DNA of 64,000 bases, taken from positions 732,662 to 796,661 of the forward strand of contig DOEE01000003.1 in assembly GCA_003524095.1 (NCBI GenBank), in the 5' to 3' direction. The notes beneath the pieces are model-generated. The model searched no databases, was not told the origin of the DNA, and worked only from the letters and a program-made list of their open reading frames with translations. Numbering within the stretch: position 1 is the first letter of the stretch; each line of letters opens with the position of its first letter. A program made the position numbers and the translations under genes. Shown here one piece after another: positions 1,027 through 60,517 of this stretch. This DNA comes from Clostridiales bacterium. GTDB lineage: Bacteria > Bacillota > Clostridia > Christensenellales > UBA1242.

Positions 1027-3236
1027 AATGCAAATCCCTCTTTATATTTATTTAATATATAAAAACCAGTTTTGTCAAGACTAATTACATTAGGTTCCAA
1101 TGATTTATTACATACAAGACGTTTGTGGCTTATATTATAAACTCCAAGATTTGTATCAGTATTATTTAAATAAAGTATATCCACTTTTGAAAAATTATCC
1201 ATTAAAAACCTTGCTTCTTTTTTGTTTGGCTTAATTTCGGGAATAAGCACAGTTCCCAAACTTGTTTTTAAATAAACAGCAATTATATATCCGTCATAAT
1301 GAACAGTTTCAAGTCTAAGCGAGCCCACTTCAACATTCAATTCAAAAATATTTATATTAGGAATCCTTTTGGATAGTTCAGAGTAATTAAAATCTGACGG
1401 AACATAGATATTTTTGACGCTGTTATCATTACAAATTTCTACTAGATTATTTAGTGAATTTAGTTGTAAATCATAAGCAATTATATTATCAATATTTTTG
1501 ATATGTAAATTTTTTAGGTCAGTCACAACTCTGCTATTTTTTATATTAGAGCCAATCAGCGTTACGATATTATCTTCGACATAATAGCAAACATTTCCTT
1601 TGTAATTCTGTACAAAAATCAAATTGTCATTGCTATAATTATTTGGAATTGCAGACATAAGAAACATAGTAATCAAAAGTGACGTTAATACAAAGGATAG
1701 TCCAAACTTAATGTACTTTTTTATCATGAAAAAATGAAGAATTATTGATATAATCAAAATCAGTGTCAATGTCCAAAAACTTACATTAAAGATTTTGAAT
1801 ATGCCAAATTTTATATTTGAAACATAGTCAGCAATTGTTTTGATTATATGCAAAAATAATTCGGGAACTTTGAGTAAAAATCCCATAAAAGGCAAAATCA
1901 AACTCACAAAAGCAACAACAAAAAGCAAAACATAAGTTATGCTAAAAATTGGAAGAACAAAGATGTTTGTGATAATCCCAAGCAAACTAACCTTTGCAAA
2001 ATTATTAAACCCAACTGGCAATATCGCCAAGTTAGTTGCAATACTTAGAGCAAGTGAACTGGCAAACACTTTGGGAAGTTTGATTTTTTCAAGCATTTTT
2101 GAAAGAGTTGGAGCAAGAGAAATTATAGCAAATATACACAAAAAAGATAATTGAAATGATATAGTAAAAAGTGCAAACGGACTAAATGCAAGTATAATTA
2201 GACCCGCTATACTCAGAGAACTTAGACTATCATACTCAATTAAATATATATCGCAAAGGGTTAATACAATCGCCATAATACTCGCCCTACACACAGACGG
2301 AGTAAATGAGCATAGATACGAATAAAATACAAGAATTGCAGAAAGTATGCCAAGTCTTACAAACTTGTTCATTTTGATTTTTTTGAGTATAAACATAATT
2401 GCTGAGACAAGCACACCGATATGCAAACCCGATACTGCTAGAATATGAGATATTCCCGCATAACTAAACATATCTGACAAGTCTTGGCTTAGTCCCTGTT
2501 TGTCACCAAACAAAATCGCATACGAAATATTTGCATTGTCATAGTTGAGATTGCTTATTAAATTTTGATAAGTCGAATTTTTGATTATGTCTTTGAAACT
2601 TTGTTTCCCCGCTTCAACTTCACATTTATCAACTCCTACATAACAAGAATAGCCCACACCCTGAAAAATCTTTTTTCCATTGTTAGTATCAAAATGGAAT
2701 GATTCAAGTTCGGTTTCAAATGCAACTTGGTCTCCCAAATTAACTACAAAGTTTTTTGTGGTGTACACAACAATTTTGTAATCAACTTTAACTTGTTCTT
2801 CACTATTATCAACAACGGCATCTTTAATTAAAAACCTAGTTGATGTATCCTCAAATACTATGTTGTCACATACAACACCATTAACTTTAACCGTACCATA
2901 AAAGTCTCTAATATTATTTGCTTTGCTAACTGGGAAAATGATACTTACTGTTCCTAAAATAAAAACAACAAAGAAAACAATACTCGATACCAACAATATT
3001 TTGCTAATGTTCTTTCGATATTCAATTTTTTCATTATATGATTTTGTTTTTATTGCATAAATAATTATAGCAACACAAAGCATTAATACACCAACAAGCA
3101 TTACAATCGCTAGCGTAGTTTTTATCCTATTTAAGTACCAATTAAAACCAAAAAGAATACCGAGCATAAGCCCGACAAATGCTACAAAAGTTATTCTAAT
3201 GTTTACGATTCTTTTGTTTGTCATCTTTTGTTCCAA
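1023..3236 (-). CDS. comEC: DNA internalization competence protein ComEC/Rec2
   Basis: 737-aa polytopic membrane ORF with the ILAVSGLHIGVL competence-channel motif and an N-terminal OB-like region. I could not find the HxHxDH motif in the C-terminal third. Confidence 0.8.
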   Translation of the reverse strand: MEQKMTNKRIVNIRITFVAFVGLMLGILFGFNWYLNRIKTTLAIVMLVGVLMLCVAIIIYAIKTKSYNEKIEYRKNISKILLVSSIVFFVVFILGTVSIIFPVSKANNIRDFYGTVKVNGVVCDNIVFEDTSTRFLIKDAVVDNSEEQVKVDYKIVVYTTKNFVVNLGDQVAFETELESFHFDTNNGKKIFQGVGYSCYVGVDKCEVEAGKQSFKDIIKNSTYQNLISNLNYDNANISYAILFGDKQGLSQDLSDMFSYAGISHILAVSGLHIGVLVSAIMFILKKIKMNKFVRLGILSAILVFYSYLCSFTPSVCRASIMAIVLTLCDIYLIEYDSLSSLSIAGLIILAFSPFALFTISFQLSFLCIFAIISLAPTLSKMLEKIKLPKVFASSLALSIATNLAILPVGFNNFAKVSLLGIITNIFVLPIFSITYVLLFVVAFVSLILPFMGFLLKVPELFLHIIKTIADYVSNIKFGIFKIFNVSFWTLTLILIISIILHFFMIKKYIKFGLSFVLTSLLITMFLMSAIPNNYSNDNLIFVQNYKGNVCYYVEDNIVTLIGSNIKNSRVVTDLKNLHIKNIDNIIAYDLQLNSLNNLVEICNDNSVKNIYVPSDFNYSELSKRIPNINIFELNVEVGSLRLETVHYDGYIIAVYLKTSLGTVLIPEIKPNKKEARFLMDNFSKVDILYLNNTDTNLGVYNISHKRLVCNKSLEPNVISLDKTGFYILNKYKEGFAL

Positions 3237-3300
3237 TTAGTACTACATTATATCAATATTAGTATACAATAATTGCGCGTATTTTCAAAGGCTTTTTGTC

Positions 3301-3345
3301 AAAAATACAACCTAAAATGTAACAATATTTTAGGTTGTATTTTGT
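3301..3345. terminator. bidirectional rho-independent terminator
   Basis: ATACAACCTAAAA / TTTTAGGTTGTAT 13-bp stem flanked by an A-run and a T-run, just downstream of the M50 protease gene. Confidence 0.65.
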
Positions 3346-3383
3346 CTTAATACCAAAAGAAAACCAGACACAAAATTTGAATA

Positions 3384-4163
3384 TTACTTAAGCAAATCGG
3401 TTTCATTAATTGTTTCAGTTTTGCCATCTAATTCATTTTTAAAAACCGAAAAATAATGTGGGTTTAGATACTTGACTAGTTCTTTTTTGTTGTGCGTTGA
3501 TACTTTAAACACTTTGACTTCAATAGGTTTATCGTTGTTTTTATTTAAACTCTTAATCTTGTCAAAATATACGTTTTTGTCAGAAGTTATAGAGTTTACT
3601 AACAAAAACATACTAGTTATTAACAAATTGTAGTTAGTTTTAAAAAATATAGATATTAAAAACAAAACTACAAACAATATTCCAAAAGTCAGACAAACAA
3701 TTTTGTTTATCCTAAGACACTTGTTTCGATTTTTGCCTTTTAGACAAAGAATGGACACAATTATTCTACCGCCATCAAGCGGATACAAAGGCAACAAATT
3801 AAACATCATTACAACAATATTGCAAATCAAAAAATCGTATGTGTATAGATAAGATAATGGAAAAATCCACCACAAACAAATTGTAACAACAATCAAAATT
3901 AAATTCACAAGTGGGCCACAAAGCGAGATGATAATATCATGTTTGCTTTTGAAACTCGAATTTGTAGTTATTCCTGCACCACTCAGAGAATAGATAATTG
4001 AATCCATCTGATAGCCATAATATTTTGCACAAAAATAATGTCCGTATTCATGCATGGTTACAACAACAACATAATAAAAAATTTTATTAAACCAGTTAAA
4101 ATAAATACAGACAAAAACATACAAAGCAAAAAGTGGATGAAATTTAATTTTTAACTTTCCCAT
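3384..4163 (-). CDS. spoIVFB: M50 site-2 metalloprotease, SpoIVFB-like
   Basis: 259-aa membrane ORF with HEYGH (HExxH) and NLLPLYPLDGGRI (LDG) motifs. It sits downstream of minD and a degenerate LytM protein, as in the B. subtilis minCD-spoIVFA-spoIVFB locus. Confidence 0.75.
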   Translation of the reverse strand: MGKLKIKFHPLFALYVFVCIYFNWFNKIFYYVVVVTMHEYGHYFCAKYYGYQMDSIIYSLSGAGITTNSSFKSKHDIIISLCGPLVNLILIVVTICLWWIFPLSYLYTYDFLICNIVVMMFNLLPLYPLDGGRIIVSILCLKGKNRNKCLRINKIVCLTFGILFVVLFLISIFFKTNYNLLITSMFLLVNSITSDKNVYFDKIKSLNKNNDKPIEVKVFKVSTHNKKELVKYLNPHYFSVFKNELDGKTETINETDLLK

Positions 4164-4780
4164 ATGATTTTACTTTTACTTATTTTTAGATTACTTATTT
4201 GAGTGTCATTTTGAAAAATCTTAAGATATACAGTATTCCCGGTTTTTGTTGTTGCAATATCTTGACCGGACTTAACTATATCATTTTCTTTTACTCCAAC
4301 AATTTCAACGTTCTCAATCCTTGTTTCAAGATTGTTGTTATGTTTAATAGTTATACATTTTACACCGTCAGTACTTTTGTTCACACTCACAACCATGCCA
4401 CTCTCACAGGCGGACACCATTATAGAATTCCCCACCGTAAATTTAATAGTTCCGTCCATTAAGATTTCATAAATCCCACCCTTAATTGGCAAAACCAAAT
4501 TCAAAGTGTCTTTTTCAATTGCATTAGCATTTGTGAACACAACTCCACTATTATCACTATAAAGCGAACTTACGGGATTTAACACTTTTATAATATCGGT
4601 TTTGATACTTTGAAATAGTGTGTTATTAGTTGCGAAACACACCAAAAATAACGAAACAATAACAAAAGGAATTATAGACTTGTGACTGCTTTTCTTTTTA
4701 CATTTTATTATAATTTCATTTTTTGTCATAGACAAAATCATTACTTTGTTTTCCATACTAGAGTATATGCTTGTCCACAA
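4151..4780 (-). CDS. membrane-anchored degenerate LytM/M23-like protein (SpoIVFA-like by position)
   Basis: 209-aa ORF with an N-terminal TM segment. The C-terminal part (ITIKHNNNLETRIENV...VKENDIVKSGQDIA) resembles an M23 fold without a full metal-binding set. It overlaps the spoIVFB start by 13 nt. The true start may be an internal Met. Confidence 0.5.
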   Translation of the reverse strand: MWTSIYSSMENKVMILSMTKNEIIIKCKKKSSHKSIIPFVIVSLFLVCFATNNTLFQSIKTDIIKVLNPVSSLYSDNSGVVFTNANAIEKDTLNLVLPIKGGIYEILMDGTIKFTVGNSIMVSACESGMVVSVNKSTDGVKCITIKHNNNLETRIENVEIVGVKENDIVKSGQDIATTKTGNTVYLKIFQNDTQISNLKISKSKIIWES

Positions 4781-6934: not shown

Positions 6935-7012
6935 AATTTCTCCTATGATTATTATAACACCATTCTATTATATTACAAAATCTTAAAATAACATTGTCTC
7001 TCGATTATTAAA

Positions 7013-8329
7013 TTATTCTTGAATTTTATCTAAAACCACCAAGCTTTCAATATGTTTTGTATTTGGGAACATGTCGAATGCTTTGACGCTATTAATTGTA
7101 AAATTATTTATCATGAATTTCAAATCTCTTTCAAGAGTTGCCAAATTACAAGAAACATAAATAATTCGTTTTGGAAGATTATTATTTTCGTCCTTCAAAA
7201 ATTGTAATAATTTTTCGCCACAACCACTTCTAGCGGGGTCAAGAATCAATGTATAATCACCCAAATCTTTTGAAACGCACCTAATCTTTTCGTTTGCATC
7301 GCCACAAATATTTGTAAGTGTCGTAATATTATTAGACAATTTTAATTTTTGAGCGATATCGGATGCAAACTTATTTATTTCAATTCCAATTACATTTTTG
7401 TTCTTTGCAATTATAGCAGACATAAGCCCCGCACCACTAAATGCATCAATTACATTGCTTGTCCCAATGTTTCTGATAACTTCCATATAGAGTTCTTTTT
7501 TTATTATATCGTTTATTTGCAAAAATGACAAATTATTAATGCTGTAATTAATTCCAAATTCGCTTGTATCAATCGAATTTTTTCCATACAACTCGAAGTA
7601 TTTTCCTTTCATTATATCTTTGGAATTATCACTAACCAGTAGTGACAAGCCTTGGGTCTTGATTGCAGTATTTAATTTTTGATAGTAGTCAAACAAATTA
7701 ATTTTTTTGCTTGCGACAATTGTAACTAAGAGTTTGTCATCTACTTCCCTTATAACCAAATATTTCAAAAAACCAAGTTTAGAAGTATCCGAAAACAGTT
7801 TAAAGTTTTCATTAAAATATTTTTGCGAAAAGTTTAAAACTTTGATTATTCCCTTTTTTGAAATTAAACAATCTTTTATTTCAATTACATCATGCGAATT
7901 CTTTTTGAACATTCCAATTTTGATTTCATCTTGGCTATAAACAAAAGGAAAGGTCATCTTATTGCGATATTCAAATTTGTTTTTTGAGATTATTTGAATA
8001 TCCGAAAAACTCTTATCTACTTTTGAAATTGTGTCTTTGACTTTACACAACTTAAATTCTAACTGTAACGAATCGTCCATATGTTGCAAATCGCAACCCC
8101 CACACTCAAAAAAATATGGACACTTAGGATTTATTCTACTTGTAGATTTAGTCAAGACTTCATTCAGTTTTGCATTACAAAATCTAGTTTTGTTATTTGT
8201 AATTGTTACATCACAAGTCTCGCACGGCAATGCAAAATCGACAAAGCCAATTTTGTCTTTGTCGTCTCCACTAGGCACATAAAAAATACCTTCGCCATTA
8301 ATACCTAATCTAACTATGTCTACTTGCAT
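7013..8329 (-). CDS. 23S rRNA (uracil-5-)-methyltransferase, RumA/TrmA family
   Basis: 438-aa ORF with an N-terminal TRAM-like region, a CPYFFECGGCDLQH iron-sulfur Cys cluster and a C-terminal SAM methyltransferase fold (DAFSGAG, DPARSG). Confidence 0.8.
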   Translation of the reverse strand: MQVDIVRLGINGEGIFYVPSGDDKDKIGFVDFALPCETCDVTITNNKTRFCNAKLNEVLTKSTSRINPKCPYFFECGGCDLQHMDDSLQLEFKLCKVKDTISKVDKSFSDIQIISKNKFEYRNKMTFPFVYSQDEIKIGMFKKNSHDVIEIKDCLISKKGIIKVLNFSQKYFNENFKLFSDTSKLGFLKYLVIREVDDKLLVTIVASKKINLFDYYQKLNTAIKTQGLSLLVSDNSKDIMKGKYFELYGKNSIDTSEFGINYSINNLSFLQINDIIKKELYMEVIRNIGTSNVIDAFSGAGLMSAIIAKNKNVIGIEINKFASDIAQKLKLSNNITTLTNICGDANEKIRCVSKDLGDYTLILDPARSGCGEKLLQFLKDENNNLPKRIIYVSCNLATLERDLKFMINNFTINSVKAFDMFPNTKHIESLVVLDKIQE

Positions 8330-56139: not shown

Positions 56140-56421
56140 ATGAAACTAAAACCATTATTTGATAGAGTTGTAGTCAAAACACTTCCAATCAAAAACGAAA
56201 AAATTGGAAATATTATTTTGCCCGAAATCACCAAACAGCCCGAAGTTAGCGAAGTTGTTGCACTAGGCACGGGCAAAGTCGACGGCAAAGATGTTGAATT
56301 TGAACTAAAACTTGGTGACCATGTAATTTTTAACAAATTTAATGGAAATGAATTCAAAATCGGAAATGAGACTTTTACGATTATCAAAGAAAAAGATATT
56401 TTAGCAATACTAGAAAAATAA
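56140..56421 (+). CDS. groES: co-chaperonin GroES
   Basis: 93-aa ORF starting MKLKPLFDRVVVK, with an AAAGGAG RBS, directly upstream of groEL. Confidence 0.93.
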   Translation: MKLKPLFDRVVVKTLPIKNEKIGNIILPEITKQPEVSEVVALGTGKVDGKDVEFELKLGDHVIFNKFNGNEFKIGNETFTIIKEKDILAILEK

Positions 56422-56431
56422 GGAGAAACAA

Positions 56432-58060
56432 ATGTCAAAACAAATTTTATCAGGATTTGATGCAATCAAAAAATTAGAAATGGGAGTTAGAAAACTAAGT
56501 AATGCTGTCAAAATTACGCTTGGGCCAAAGGGTCGAAATGTCGTTTTGGACAGAAAGTTTGCCACTCCATTAATCACAAACGACGGGGTCACAATTGCCA
56601 AAGAAATCACCCTTCCCGACCCTTTTGAAAACATGGGTGCAAATTTAATCAAGGAAGTCAGTATCAAGACTAACGAAGTTGCGGGCGACGGAACAACTAC
56701 CGCTTGTATTTTGGCTGAAAGCATTGTTAGTGTTGGTGTCAAAAACTACACCGCTGGAGCAAACCCAATTATTCTCAAAAAAGGCATACAAAAAGCAATT
56801 TCGGTAGCGACTGAGCATTTAAGAGAAATCTCCATTCCAGTGTCTAGTTCCAAAGAAATCTTCCAAGTAGCATCAATTAGTGCTGGCGACGAAGAAATTG
56901 GAAGACTAATAGCCGACGGCTTTGAAAAAGTCGGCAAAGACGGAGTTATTACTGTCGAAGAAAGCAAAACTCTCAAGACCGAACTAAAAATAGTCGAAGG
57001 CATGCAATTCGACAGAGGCTACTTGTCTCCATACATGGTAACCAATCCGGACAAAATGGAATGTATACTTCAAGATAGTTATATTCTAATAACAGACAAA
57101 CGCATCAAAAATTTAAATGAAATTATTGGAGTACTCGAAGCGGTTTCGCAGAGTGGAAAGTCACTACTCATTATTGCCGAAGATATCGAAAACGAAGTAC
57201 TTAGCACTCTAGTTCTTAACAAACTAAGAGGTGCACTTAACGTTGTAGCGGTCAAAGCACCGGGTTATGCAGACAAGCGAAAAGCCTTGTGTCAAGACAT
57301 TGCAGTACTAACACATGGAACATTTATTTGTGACGAACTTGGTTTTGAATTAAAAGATGTAAATCTTCAAAAATTAGGTTTTGCTAGTAGTATCAAAGTC
57401 ACCAAAGATAGCACTACAATTTCTGGTGGCAAGGGCCTCAAAGAAGAGATTGAAAATAGAATTCTCGAAATCAAAGGTCAAATTGAAAGTGCAAACAATG
57501 AGTTTGACAAAAATCGTCTTCAAGAGAGACTTGCAAAATTAATAGGTGGAATAGCCATAATTTATGTAGGAAGTGCAACCGAAGTTGAAATGCAAGAGAA
57601 GAAACTTAGAATTGAAGACGCAATTGAGGCCACAAAGTCTGCCACCCAAGAAGGAATTGTTTGTGGCGGTGGTGTTGCACTACTCAACTGTGTTGATTGT
57701 GTTCAAAAATTAGTAGATACTCTCTCAGGTGACGAAAAAACCGGTGCTGAAATTGTACTAAAATCACTCTTTGCACCTATTAATATGATAACTCAAAATG
57801 CTGGGATTGAAGGTGCTATTGTTATTGAAAATATACTTAATAAACACGACAAAAATTATGGTTACAATGCACTAACTAATGAGTATGTAAATTTGATAGA
57901 AAGCGGAATTATTGACCCTACCAAAGTTGCACGAACAGCACTTGAAAATGCAGGAAGCGTAGCGTCTACACTGCTTACAACCGAAGTGCTAGTCTGCGAT
58001 ATCGAAGAAAAGATAAACCCCAAAGACCCAAATGCCATTCCCCAAGCATATGGCATGTAA
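56432..58060 (+). CDS. groEL: chaperonin GroEL
   Basis: 542-aa ORF with GPKGRNVVL, AGDGTTTA and VAVKAPG. I see no C-terminal GGM repeat. Confidence 0.97.
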   Translation: MSKQILSGFDAIKKLEMGVRKLSNAVKITLGPKGRNVVLDRKFATPLITNDGVTIAKEITLPDPFENMGANLIKEVSIKTNEVAGDGTTTACILAESIVSVGVKNYTAGANPIILKKGIQKAISVATEHLREISIPVSSSKEIFQVASISAGDEEIGRLIADGFEKVGKDGVITVEESKTLKTELKIVEGMQFDRGYLSPYMVTNPDKMECILQDSYILITDKRIKNLNEIIGVLEAVSQSGKSLLIIAEDIENEVLSTLVLNKLRGALNVVAVKAPGYADKRKALCQDIAVLTHGTFICDELGFELKDVNLQKLGFASSIKVTKDSTTISGGKGLKEEIENRILEIKGQIESANNEFDKNRLQERLAKLIGGIAIIYVGSATEVEMQEKKLRIEDAIEATKSATQEGIVCGGGVALLNCVDCVQKLVDTLSGDEKTGAEIVLKSLFAPINMITQNAGIEGAIVIENILNKHDKNYGYNALTNEYVNLIESGIIDPTKVARTALENAGSVASTLLTTEVLVCDIEEKINPKDPNAIPQAYGM

Positions 58061-58090
58061 AAAAAAGTGAGCAAACGCTCACTTTTTTTT
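58059..58090. terminator. bidirectional terminator (left copy of a duplicated terminator)
   Basis: A8, then AGTGAGC-AAAC-GCTCACT, then T8. It serves groEL on the plus strand and the 80-aa ORF on the minus strand. Confidence 0.85.
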
Positions 58091-58331
58091 ATTTCTTACA
58101 AATCATAACAATAAATGAAAATAAAAAAATGCTTAAAACAATTGCTACTATAATTTGTGGAAGTTTGTGTTTAATAAAATATACATTTTCTCGTATCCTT
58201 TCCCTATCTTTTTGCAAAAATACTTGACCACAATATGGGCAACATTCGTCACTGGTCTCACTATTAGCAAAATCTACCTTGACTTTTCTATTGCATCTGC
58301 TACATTTTATAATCACCCTACGCCTCCGCAA
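58089..58331 (-). CDS. zinc-ribbon protein with a C-terminal TM tail anchor
   Basis: 80-aa ORF with CSRC...CPYC followed by IIVAIVLSIFLFSFIVMI. It overlaps the upstream ORF by 14 nt. Confidence 0.5.
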   Translation of the reverse strand: MRRRRVIIKCSRCNRKVKVDFANSETSDECCPYCGQVFLQKDRERIRENVYFIKHKLPQIIVAIVLSIFLFSFIVMICKK

Positions 58332-58746
58332 CTATTAAATCATCTATTCTAGTAACCCATTGAACACCATTTTTGTAAAAAGACGACATAGAAAAATCAT
58401 AAATACCATTGCCTGTATAATCAATAACAGTAAAAATAGGAACATAAAAATTATTATACTCCCCTTTGGCTTTTGCTCGTATGATAATTTTTTTTGACTT
58501 GTAATTTTCCAATTTAATCGTTCCAAATACTTTGAAAGTATTTTGATAATCTAATCCTTGACCATAACTTGCATCTTCAATACCTGCCAAATTTTGAATA
58601 CGATAGTCTATTGAAAACTTTGACTCATCTGTTTTTAATTTTGATAAAACAAAAAAACCAACTCCCATGACCGCAAAAATAATCAAAACAACTATGACTA
58701 TTTTTAGTTTAGATTTACCACCATTTTGATCTTCTACACATTCCAT
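58318..58746 (-). CDS. bitopic membrane protein with an ectodomain of about 100 aa
   Basis: 142-aa ORF with an N-terminal TM segment (IVIVVLIIFAVMGVGFFVL) and a C-terminal part that looks beta-rich. It overlaps the upstream ORF by 13 nt. Confidence 0.5.
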   Translation of the reverse strand: MECVEDQNGGKSKLKIVIVVLIIFAVMGVGFFVLSKLKTDESKFSIDYRIQNLAGIEDASYGQGLDYQNTFKVFGTIKLENYKSKKIIIRAKAKGEYNNFYVPIFTVIDYTGNGIYDFSMSSFYKNGVQWVTRIDDLIVAEA

Positions 58747-58952
58747 TGATTACCACAATTTTTACACACTGCTCTGGTTTTGGATATTGTTTTGGAATTT
58801 GTTATCCCCATAAAGTACAAAAATAATAGTCCAATTCCAAAAGTAAAACAAGCAATCAAAATCCAAAACAACCAAGACAATGCAGACCTATGTTTGCTTT
58901 GAGTATTGCTAATAAATTGAATATCATCACTTCCACATTTTGGACAATGCAT
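58734..58952 (-). CDS. split zinc ribbon interrupted by a hydrophobic hairpin (LITAF-like topology)
   Basis: 72-aa ORF with CPKC, a hydrophobic stretch of about 30 aa, then CKNC. The RBS is AAAGGAGGAG. Confidence 0.5.
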   Translation of the reverse strand: MHCPKCGSDDIQFISNTQSKHRSALSWLFWILIACFTFGIGLLFLYFMGITNSKTISKTRAVCKNCGNQWNV

Positions 58953-58984
58953 ATAAACTCCTCCTTTGTATAATTTCTACCTAC

Positions 58985-59014
58985 ATTATATATTAGCCAT
59001 TGGCTAAAAGTCAA
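58985..59014 (-). promoter_or_regulatory. near-consensus sigma-A promoter of the three-gene operon
   Basis: Minus strand reads TTGACT, 18 nt, then TATAAT. The spacer consists mostly of the palindromic operator. Confidence 0.6.
58993..59007. promoter_or_regulatory. palindromic operator candidate TTAGCCA-T-TGGCTAA
   Basis: Two perfect 7-nt arms. An 11-nt direct repeat of one half (ATTGGCTAAAA) occurs at 58999-59009 and 59029-59039, 30 bp apart. Confidence 0.5.
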
Positions 59015-59057
59015 GTAAAATTTTAACTATTGGCTAAAATAATTGTAAGGAGGATTT

Positions 59058-59267
59058 ATGAGAGCAGAAATAATTAATCGTATGTTTGAAGAAATAAATT
59101 CATGTGGACTAACTTATACTGAAATTGCAAAAAAAGTTGGAATATCTGTTGTTATGCTAAGTCAATACAAAAATTTGTCTAAACTACCATCACTAGAAAC
59201 CTTTACAAAAATTTGTAGTGTAATCAATGCATCCGCAGATTATATTTTAGGATTAAAAGAATATTAA
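59058..59267 (+). CDS. XRE-family helix-turn-helix transcriptional regulator
   Basis: 69-aa ORF with LTYTEIAKKVGISVVMLSQYKN (HTH) and an AAGGAGG RBS, divergent from the three-gene operon. Confidence 0.8.
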   Translation: MRAEIINRMFEEINSCGLTYTEIAKKVGISVVMLSQYKNLSKLPSLETFTKICSVINASADYILGLKEY

Positions 59268-59375
59268 AATAACTTTACACATTTAGCGAAAATATATCAA
59301 TAAAGTGTTTATTCTATCACAACATAAAAATAAATTATGTTTAGACACCATATCGCAATATTTATCAGTTAAAAG

Positions 59376-59404
59376 CAAAAAAGTGAGCATATGCTCACTT
59401 TTTT
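59376..59404. terminator. bidirectional terminator (right copy of a duplicated terminator)
   Basis: A6, then the perfect palindrome AAGTGAGCAT/ATGCTCACTT, then T6. It lies between the XRE gene and the rluA-family gene end. Confidence 0.85.
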
Positions 59405-59419
59405 ATTTTCTTTTTAGAG

Positions 59420-60112
59420 TTATTTAACAATATCCAAATTAAAGACGTTCCATGGGGTTATGTCTTCGGGTGGATAGCATTTGAAGGTCATGTTTTCCTT
59501 GGTGGTTGGATGAACAAATTTGAGTTCATAAGCCCAAAGTGCCAAATTGTGTCCTTTGGCTAATTTGTCGCCACCATATTTGACATCACCATAAATAGGA
59601 CAACCTATATTTTTGAGTTGAACTCTTATTTGATGACTTCTGCCAGTAGCCAAGTTTACTTCCACCAAAGAAACTTTTTCACTATCGTCCAAAACAACAT
59701 AGTCTAATTCGGCACGTTTTGCATTTGTTGTGAGTTCCGGAACGACTTGGACGGTATTAGTTCTTGCATTTTTAAGCAAGTAGTTTACAAGTTTTGCTCG
59801 TTTTTCTCTTGGTTTTCCAACAACCACTGCCAAATATCTTTTCTTAAAATCTCCGGTATGCATCTCTTGAGTAAGTCTACTTGCAGACTTGCTTGTTTTG
59901 GCAAAAACCATAATTCCGCCCGTTGGTCTATCTAGTCTATGAACAAGTCCAACGTATACATTGCCCGGTTTGTTTTCTTTGACTTTTATGTATTCTTTGA
60001 CCATAGTAAGCAAGTCTTTGTCCTTGCTTTCATCTTCTTGAGTTGGTACATTTTGTGGTTTAACAACCACAATTATATGATTGTCTTCGTACACAACATT
60101 TAATTCTTCCAT
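59420..60112 (-). CDS. RluA-family pseudouridine synthase (no S4 domain)
   Basis: 230-aa ORF with the catalytic motif HRLDRPTGGIMVFAK and GRSHQIRVQ. Confidence 0.85.
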   Translation of the reverse strand: MEELNVVYEDNHIIVVVKPQNVPTQEDESKDKDLLTMVKEYIKVKENKPGNVYVGLVHRLDRPTGGIMVFAKTSKSASRLTQEMHTGDFKKRYLAVVVGKPREKRAKLVNYLLKNARTNTVQVVPELTTNAKRAELDYVVLDDSEKVSLVEVNLATGRSHQIRVQLKNIGCPIYGDVKYGGDKLAKGHNLALWAYELKFVHPTTKENMTFKCYPPEDITPWNVFNLDIVK

Positions 60113-60130
60113 TATTTACTCCCGATATTT

Positions 60131-60517
60131 TTAATTAATTTCGGATACAAGCAAGTACCACCTTGTTGTACCATTAACCTTGTTAACGACACATTTGCCA
60201 GCAACCGTTACATTTGCACCACTTTTTGGAGTACTGACACCGCTATCCATTCTAACTTCAAATTGCCATCTACAACAAGTATTATTTTCGTTTAGTGTAT
60301 AGTAGCCACTTGACCCCTTAAACTTCCCCCACACTTTAAGCGTTTTGTCTTTGTATCTTGCGGGGTCGTTGTTGATATTGGTAATTATGCTATTTGCAAA
60401 AGTGTCATTTCCAACTAGGTTATAATTAATTTTCATTTCACCACAAGCGGTTAGACAAGTTAGCGAAATTACTAATACAAGTAACACCAAAAAATTTTTG
60501 AATAGTTTTGTTTTCAT
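60131..60517 (-). CDS. hypothetical lipoprotein at the 3' end of the zinc ABC operon
   Basis: 128-aa ORF with the lipobox LTACG. Its start overlaps the permease stop by 4 nt. It contains a CC pair (NNTCCRW) and looks OB-fold-like. Confidence 0.5.
   Translation of the reverse strand: MKTKLFKNFLVLLVLVISLTCLTACGEMKINYNLVGNDTFANSIITNINNDPARYKDKTLKVWGKFKGSSGYYTLNENNTCCRWQFEVRMDSGVSTPKSGANVTVAGKCVVNKVNGTTRWYLLVSEIN

Follow-up and report, generated by a model that had tools for sequence, protein, structure and literature searches.

What would a group of very small membrane-protein genes, placed behind a helix-turn-helix (HTH) regulator of the XRE family, be doing between two housekeeping genes of an uncultured gut bacterium of the Clostridiales? 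The question is raised by a 64,000-nt stretch of contig DOEE01000003.1 (referred to below as the window), in which a cassette of ~1.3 kb, read at 58066-59420, carries three small genes, here called A, B and C, on the minus strand and a divergent XRE gene on the plus strand. The original prediction, made from the sequence alone, described three small membrane proteins, encoded as an operon, for which no function had been assigned, and both the open reading frames (ORFs) and the comparisons reported here bear this out. The cassette is a real, conserved and self-contained accessory module, apparently XRE-gated, with a bacterial LITAF-like protein, and the recurrence of its genes and of its operator and promoter layout in many independent loci is more than chance. 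As to its role, we give a probability of roughly 0.4 to the reading that it takes part, at the cell envelope, in a conflict with phages or with other DNA that invades the cell, by exclusion or defence, with C providing specificity and A acting on the membrane.

A recurrent module behind paired operators

Relatives of A (65-94% identity) and of B were traced to contigs and GTDB genomes, the ORFs of the traced loci (numbered with L below) were scored with A, B and C profiles, and a genome scan was made with the A alignment. In every A-carrying locus, C lies next to A and the pair stands behind an HTH gene that is read divergently; at least nine genomic contexts are represented, and all carriers of A are uncultured Clostridia. 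The contexts include rluA/groEL, RNase R/FAD protein, ftsW/murA, MazF/nth and a position beside tRNA-Lys, and are mostly between housekeeping genes. The order A-B-C is found in the window, L011-L014, L017-L019 and L022, and the order A-C-B in L016 and L026, while L049 reads C-B with its upstream end cut off; B is absent from L021, L023 and L025, is replaced in L024 by a possibly unrelated 140-aa lipoprotein (hhalign against B gave an E of 0.004 but a probability of 8%), and stands alone behind an XRE gene in L015 and L048. The conserved core consists of XRE, A and C, with B as an optional, movable third part. The genes do occur together in other genomes, and the co-occurrence expected by the original prediction is borne out. 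The variation in order (A-B-C, A-C-B) points to functional linkage rather than inherited synteny.

Two observations on these loci may be added. In the conspecific loci L001-L010, L053, L058 and L061, the recorded gene calls hold XRE and B but not A or C, and the module would therefore be overlooked by annotation-based surveys. Meanwhile, membrane-scaffold genes lie less than ~1 kb downstream of the A-C-B form: L016 has a fusion of Band_7/SPFH with zinc ribbons (2475-4624), and L049 has NfeD (753-1800), a second, unrelated context with such a gene near the module; this may be coincidence.

The regulator of the window is a 69-aa XRE-family HTH protein (59058-59267, plus strand), a presumed repressor, which scores above threshold against Pfam HTH_3 (37.9 bits, cutoff 23, E 1.8e-9). 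Among solved structures, the ICEBs1 Xre-family regulator 7t8i is its nearest relative, with HipB next; its resemblance to the HipB and HigA antitoxins is weak and sub-threshold, and its best family matches are the phage repressor families RstR (sub-threshold) and phrog_8. The operon promoter, TTGACT-18-TATAAT (59014 to 58985, minus strand), scores 11/12 against the consensus and is the best match in the region. As originally described, its spacer is filled by the perfect palindrome TTAGCCAtTGGCTAA (operator O1, 58993-59007) and a second site, TTAACTATTGGCTAA (operator O2, 59023-59037), follows at a distance of 30 bp. O2 is placed in the XRE leader, on the upstream side of the operon -35, and reads TTAACCATTGGCTAA in sister strains. 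An operator placed within the -35/-10 spacer is in a repressing position. O1 and O2 are the sole matches to the palindrome in the 64 kb with two mismatches allowed, compared with a mean of 0.21 matches in shuffled sequence, where two or more matches occurred in 2 of 100 shuffles. A candidate weak XRE promoter, TAGCCA-16-TAAAAT (58994-59021, plus strand), overlaps both O1 and the operon -35, which implies autoregulation; the XRE -35 proposed to overlap the palindrome can thus be located, but solely as a 9/12 consensus match.

The arrangement is not peculiar to the window. Every locus with a small XRE protein (66-92 aa) has its palindrome twice, ~30 bp apart, and in all but L023 one copy lies between TTGACx (TTGAAA in L016 and L026) and a TATAAT-like hexamer, with the other just upstream; both palindromes are present in L023, and no such promoter hexamers are evident there. 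TTGACx and TATAAT are retained in most related loci. The layout of operator, -35, operator and -10 recurs with five palindromes, each changing with the HTH protein: TTAGCCAATGGCTAA is the window type, TTAAGCCAATGGCTTAA occurs in L023, AGAAGAAATCTTCT in L015, ATAGAAAATTCTAT in L016 and L026, and ATACTCAAAATGAGTAT in L021. Since the layout is kept and the operator sequence covaries with the regulator, there is good comparative evidence that the HTH protein binds the paired palindromes, and the predicted gating of the operon by XRE at these sites gains support from the same covariation.

The cargo proteins and their variation

Gene A (58734-58952, minus strand) is preceded by the Shine-Dalgarno sequence AAGGAGGAG, read directly at 58958-58966 on the same strand, and encodes a 72-aa LITAF-like zinc ribbon split by a 26-residue hydrophobic hairpin, with CPKC at residues 3-6, the hydrophobic stretch at 25-50 and CKNC at 63-66. 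Throughout the A family there is no change in any of the four cysteines, in the central FG-G turn or in the polar residues of the interface. Against Pfam zf-LITAF-like (PF10601), A scores 21.6 bits where the cutoff is 23.8, with residues 1-69 aligned to model positions 6-65 of 70, and all nine relatives of A match the same family at E <= 0.01 (best 1.4e-5); the LITAF-like reading of A first suggested from the motifs gains support from this full-length match just under threshold. The AlphaFold2 (AF2) model of A, with a predicted local distance difference test score (pLDDT) of 68, shows two helices, of 13 and then 11 residues, with a turn between them and a strand on either side, and the two helical arms in this model are too short for two bilayer crossings. 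Basic residues flank the hydrophobic stretch on either side, and the stretch itself is neither amphipathic nor pore-like. A fold search of A against BFVD returned only TFIIS-type zinc ribbons, to which little weight is given at a model pLDDT of 68. In L013 (metagenome-assembled genome (MAG) GCA_034174845.1, ~6150, corresponding to window 58785), a 1-nt deletion frameshifts A so that its second CxxC knuckle is lost; either a pseudogene or a mistake in the assembly may lie behind this.

It has been reported that LITAF is a zinc-binding monotopic membrane protein with both termini cytosolic and a 22-residue hydrophobic region between two cysteine pairs (PMC5142333, PMC5095921), and that in eukaryotes the LITAF domain has a part in membrane trafficking and binds the head groups of phosphatidylethanolamine (PMC5142333). 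Like the eukaryotic LITAF/SIMPLE proteins (PF10601; LITAF, CDIP1), A has two CxxC knuckles with some 22-26 hydrophobic residues between them, not enough for a double crossing of the membrane, and its Pfam alignment is full-length. Unlike them, A is bacterial, stands alone at 72 aa without a proline-rich N-terminal region, falls just below the Pfam cutoff and shares its operon with a second zinc-ribbon membrane protein; its zinc binding and topology are predicted.

Gene B (58318-58746, minus strand) overlaps A by 13 nt, as first noted, and encodes 142 aa, predicted to form a membrane anchor at the N terminus and, facing outward, a beta-sandwich of about 100 aa. The AF2 model (pLDDT 90) has a helix at residues 11-36 followed by six long beta strands, in agreement with the anchor and beta-rich ectodomain expected for this protein. 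The family is small, with only 18 representatives in an exhaustive HMMER search of 1.84 billion representative proteins, and several relatives carry a lipobox instead of the membrane anchor. No Pfam family was found for B or for any of its 14 relatives, and a fold search against the PDB and BFVD gave nothing at E <= 0.001, only generic immunoglobulin/fibronectin type III (Ig/FnIII)-like beta-sandwiches.

Gene C (58089-58316, minus strand) encodes a 75-aa protein in which an N-terminal CxxC...CPYCG zinc ribbon is followed by a juxtamembrane helix rich in basic and aromatic residues and then by a membrane anchor at the C terminus; the CSRC and CPYC motifs and the C-terminal hydrophobic tail reported for it are all present. 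Its start has been moved. The longest ORF of C runs to TTG 58331, and the 14-nt overlap with B described earlier depends on that codon; GTG 58316 has a GGAGG Shine-Dalgarno sequence 6 nt before it and corresponds to an ATG in the closely related L019, for which reasons the start is set at 58316. TTG 58331 is probably not the start in use, and C would then be 75 aa long rather than 80, beginning 1 nt past the B stop, which leaves the operon as closely packed as before in all but this overlap. The ribbon of C resembles archaeal RNA polymerase subunit P (Rpo12/RpoP; E 8e-6), with a sub-threshold NCBIfam match. In PDB sequence searches, C matched only Rpo12-type ribbons, and A and B found no relative. 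Apart from the LITAF-like match of A, the searches of Pfam, NCBIfam, PHROGs and PADLOC with all four proteins returned generic zinc-ribbon and HTH matches only, and none of the known defence, phage and plasmid families fits the trio.

The genes also differ in how they vary. Pairwise ratios of non-synonymous to synonymous divergence (dN/dS) range from 0.05 to 0.34 in A, from 0.05 to 0.19 in XRE and from 0.4 to 0.7 in B and C; these are rough figures with dS saturated, and being below 1 they speak for real genes. Strong purifying selection acts on A, which is intact at almost every locus, and within the clade XRE has changed only synonymously. For the within-species comparison, the window was set against the near-identical contigs L002-L010. 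Among these nine contigs, C has five non-synonymous variants (K13R, D15Y, K36Q, V45A, I56M) and no synonymous one, whereas A, B and XRE together have no non-synonymous and four synonymous variants, the silent changes lying in A and B with XRE invariant (Fisher test, p = 0.008). This suggests that C is under diversifying or relaxed selection.

A variable site between rluA and groEL

The cassette is closed at either end by a stable bidirectional terminator hairpin, one common to C and groEL (58061-58093; -17.9 kcal/mol, z -5.7) and the other common to XRE and rluA (59377-59409; fold -15.4 kcal/mol). The two hairpins form a 33-nt direct repeat around the cassette, 88% identical and present in only two copies in the window, and homology to alternative alleles of the same species ends at both borders of the strain-variable segment (58066-59420). 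In more distant relatives, whose RluA is 63% identical, rluA and groEL converge on a single bidirectional terminator of ~50 nt, which represents the empty site.

Same-species alleles, found by lookup of the exact RluA protein of the window, comprise at least four alternative cassettes between identical rluA and groEL flanks (at ~4190-5620 in L052, L054, L055, L059 and L060). The allele of the window, also present in L053, L058 and L061, has the 69-aa XRE gene with A-B-C; a second, in L052, L056, L057 and L027, has a 228-aa kinase-like gene and no regulator; a third, in L054 and L059, has an XRE gene of 69-70 aa and a lipoprotein gene of 297-300 aa; and a fourth, in L055 and L060, has an 82-aa HTH gene and a 192-aa YpsA/SLOG-like protein (sub-threshold). 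Three of the four alleles thus bring a divergent small HTH gene. The XRE of the third allele is identical to that of the window at 51 of 69 residues (74%), and the layout of O2, TTGACA and O1 is kept with an unrelated cargo; the flanking DNA of these two alleles is 99-100% identical and the XRE-plus-promoter segment 66%. No relation was found between the 297-aa lipoprotein of L059 and B. Because a related XRE and the same operators here stand before another cargo, the XRE-plus-promoter unit, as judged by comparison of these sequences, behaves as a portable driver for differing cargos.

In the second allele (L027 2480-3680, equal to L052 4220-5420), the 228-aa ORF has a sub-threshold match to Choline_kinase (18.7 bits). 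Perfect inverted repeats of 15 bp, CTTTTGAAACTAGTG and CACTAGTTTCAAAAG, mark the two ends of this cassette, with terminator-stem remnants outside, as if a miniature inverted-repeat transposable element (MITE)-like element had landed in the hairpin loop.

Direct repeats also surround the module at other sites. They are exact over 29 nt in L016 (176 and 1424) and over 21 nt in L017 and L018 (L017 at 2462 and 3612), a 78-nt repeat is present in L025 (3370-3447 and 4465-4542), and in L011 a repeat lies around an extra Bro-N gene (~6830 and ~7900); none was seen in L014 or L021. The repeats consist of the local terminator hairpin or another local repeat, and their sequence differs in each genomic context, which suggests either insertion into terminators with target duplication or selection for a terminator on both sides. 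No known RNA element reached the Rfam threshold, either within the cassette or within the 78-nt L025 repeat.

Possible role of the cassette and the genes around it

In the mechanism proposed here, a dimeric XRE-type repressor would bind the two palindromic operators, which are three helical turns apart, and on O1, in the spacer of a near-consensus sigma-70 promoter, it would block RNA polymerase at the A-B-C operon; as O1 and O2 would overlap the weak divergent XRE promoter, the repressor would also limit its own synthesis. The operon would be held tight and would fire hard without the repressor, as might happen when the cassette enters a new cell or the repressor loses its activity. Its product would be a small membrane assembly, with a topology taken from sequence and models, in which A may be a monotopic LITAF-like hairpin with its zinc ribbon on the cytoplasmic face and the conserved membrane-acting part, C a tail-anchored cytoplasmic zinc ribbon whose fast change would make it the specificity part, and B, where present, a beta-sandwich displayed outside the membrane.

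An action of this assembly in envelope conflict is favoured by the turnover of the site between strains, the many insertion sites, the defence-type neighbours and the polymorphism of C. Among the neighbours, AbiLi/AbiLii and a serine recombinase lie immediately beside the module in L015, PDC-M41A (1e-76) in L026, a PD-(D/E)XK protein in L023 and MazF in L021; in L011, a 275-aa Bro-N protein (6984-7811) matching PDC-S13 at 7e-119 follows directly after A-B-C, with its own consensus promoter and similar hairpins on its flanks. Several results weigh against the conflict reading. Searching PADLOC-DB 2.0 gave no match for A or B and only a 20.8-bit zinc-ribbon noise match of C to PDC-M14A; a tblastn search of 50,697 phage and 72,556 plasmid records brought up nothing for A or B; the A and C profiles run against IMG/VR found nothing, or unrelated zinc ribbons in an integrase and another protein; and no homology of the cargo to any characterised system was found. 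In addition, most insertion sites are between housekeeping genes and not in recognised defence islands, the 69-aa XRE is without a sensor domain, saturated dS makes the selection estimates rough, and the polymorphism test of C draws on nine variant sites in all. The XRE driver of the third allele gates a plain lipoprotein, and gating alone says little about the role of a cargo. For the same reason, the original inference from a locked strong promoter to toxic, lytic or abortive-infection cargo is weakened: the third allele gates an ordinary-looking 297-aa lipoprotein, and B stands alone behind XRE in L015 and L048. Toxicity finds no support in the data.

The cargo, wholly of membrane and surface proteins, could also serve as a strain-specific envelope accessory outside any conflict, in adhesion, cell-wall or lipid handling or stress tolerance, at a level set by the autoregulated XRE. 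The sister cassettes with a lipoprotein or B alone, the mostly housekeeping flanks and the binding of phosphatidylethanolamine head groups by LITAF domains in membrane trafficking (PMC5142333) agree with such a role; however, a near-consensus promoter with an operator in its spacer suits an on/off switch better than fine tuning, and the extreme strain-level turnover at the site, the defence-type neighbours in several contexts and the exclusively non-synonymous polymorphism of C speak against it, so that we regard it as doubtful. An addiction-type or conditionally toxic module, in which A and/or C would be membrane-damaging in quantity and XRE an antitoxin-like lock, seems improbable to us. Killing or arrest of the cell on loss of the cassette or repressor would explain its persistence without a mobility gene, and the consensus promoter held by a spacer operator, the weak resemblance of XRE to HipB-type antitoxins, the small, self-contained cassettes at many sites and the frameshifted A of L013 fit this idea. 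Yet the divergent layout is not that of a co-transcribed toxin-antitoxin pair, the hydrophobic stretch of A does not look like that of a pore, A is under strong purifying selection and disrupted in hardly any locus, a lipoprotein is gated by the same driver, and the frameshift is possibly an assembly error. The type II toxin-antitoxin assignment proper was rejected, XRE being divergent from the cargo in all loci and not co-transcribed with it; so was a holin-endolysin lysis cassette, as no hydrolase gene is in or beside the cassette in any locus.

Least probable of all, and to our mind quite unlikely, is a decayed switch of a prophage or integrative and conjugative element (ICE), with the repressor facing former early genes and the whole drifting without function. 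Its geometry is of the CI/Cro type, RstR (sub-threshold) and phrog_8 are the best families of XRE, and A weakly matches C-terminal domains of several phage protein families; but no other phage genes are adjacent in any context, the phage records searched by tblastn hold no match to A or B and IMG/VR no true relative of A or C, and the compact unit is intact at no fewer than nine sites, with A and XRE under purifying selection.

Some named systems resemble the cassette in part. The regulatory part is like phage and ICE-type XRE switches (434/lambda CI-Cro; ICEBs1 ImmR) and like the controller (C) proteins that belong to restriction-modification (R-M) systems in its small HTH protein, two palindromic operators, divergent promoters, operator overlapping the core of the cargo promoter and implied autoregulation. 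Unlike these, it has no protease or sensor partner (ImmA-like), no Cro-like partner and no R-M genes, its cargo is three membrane proteins, and the DNA binding of its XRE is putative. The superinfection-exclusion (Sie) proteins of the Sie2009 type and the Ltp lipoprotein of Gram-positive prophages are small, anchored or lipidated, fast-evolving proteins with an outside domain of ~100 aa, encoded beside a repressor gene. The likeness of B to them is one of architecture only, its family alternating between membrane anchor and lipobox; no sequence or fold similarity was found, the cassette is outside a prophage, the A-C pair has no counterpart there, and the cargo would be repressed by the neighbouring regulator instead of being co-transcribed with it. 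Membership of the Sie/Ltp family was rejected, as B has no PHROG annotation and no match in the phage records and no prophage genes are near. Variable defence hot spots between conserved core genes are known from pangenome studies in E. coli and Pseudomonas. The site studied here is similar in that identical rluA/groEL flanks hold at least four small cargos, the site is empty in relatives, and some sister or neighbouring cargos are defence candidates; it differs in being a single intergenic terminator with cassettes of 1.2-1.4 kb, XRE/HTH genes in three of four alleles and no rluA/groEL cargo (0/4) that matches a validated defence system.

Small accessory cassettes that are held by a repressor and sit at variable hot spots are already known. 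A literature search for defence modules of a bacterial LITAF-like or similar kind brought up nothing of relevance except the two structure papers on eukaryotic LITAF. It is tentatively put forward, as an unlikely proposal in its full breadth, that A-C with or without B is a new envelope anti-phage or anti-invasion system built around a bacterial LITAF-like protein, within an undescribed plug-in class (small XRE, operator-locked consensus promoter, swappable cargo) that lodges in core-gene terminators of uncultured gut Clostridia, often duplicating the terminator, and is exchanged between strains. If the envelope-conflict reading is right, the module would give the first functional handle on bacterial LITAF-like domains, a membrane-based conflict system made of very small proteins only, a compact XRE-plus-promoter platform with varied cargos at one hypervariable terminator site, and a tractable model for the gain, silencing and swapping of small accessory genes in gut Clostridia. 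If the cargo has no conflict role, the locus would still be a clean natural case of operator-regulator covariation.

The cassette lies in an AT-rich neighbourhood of core genes, with a G+C content slightly below that of its surroundings (27-31% against 33-40%). On one side is groES/groEL (56140-58060, plus strand) and on the other an rluA-type pseudouridine synthase gene (59420-60112, minus strand), and lspA, znuABC and fur are also found nearby. A role in zinc homeostasis was considered, since znuABC and fur adjoin, and was rejected, as the cassette occupies unrelated sites in other genomes. A 128-aa lipoprotein-like ORF (60131-60517, minus strand), without a Pfam family, stands before rluA and overlaps znuB at the end of that gene; it is kept in all syntenic loci and may be an uncharacterised component of the zinc-uptake operon.

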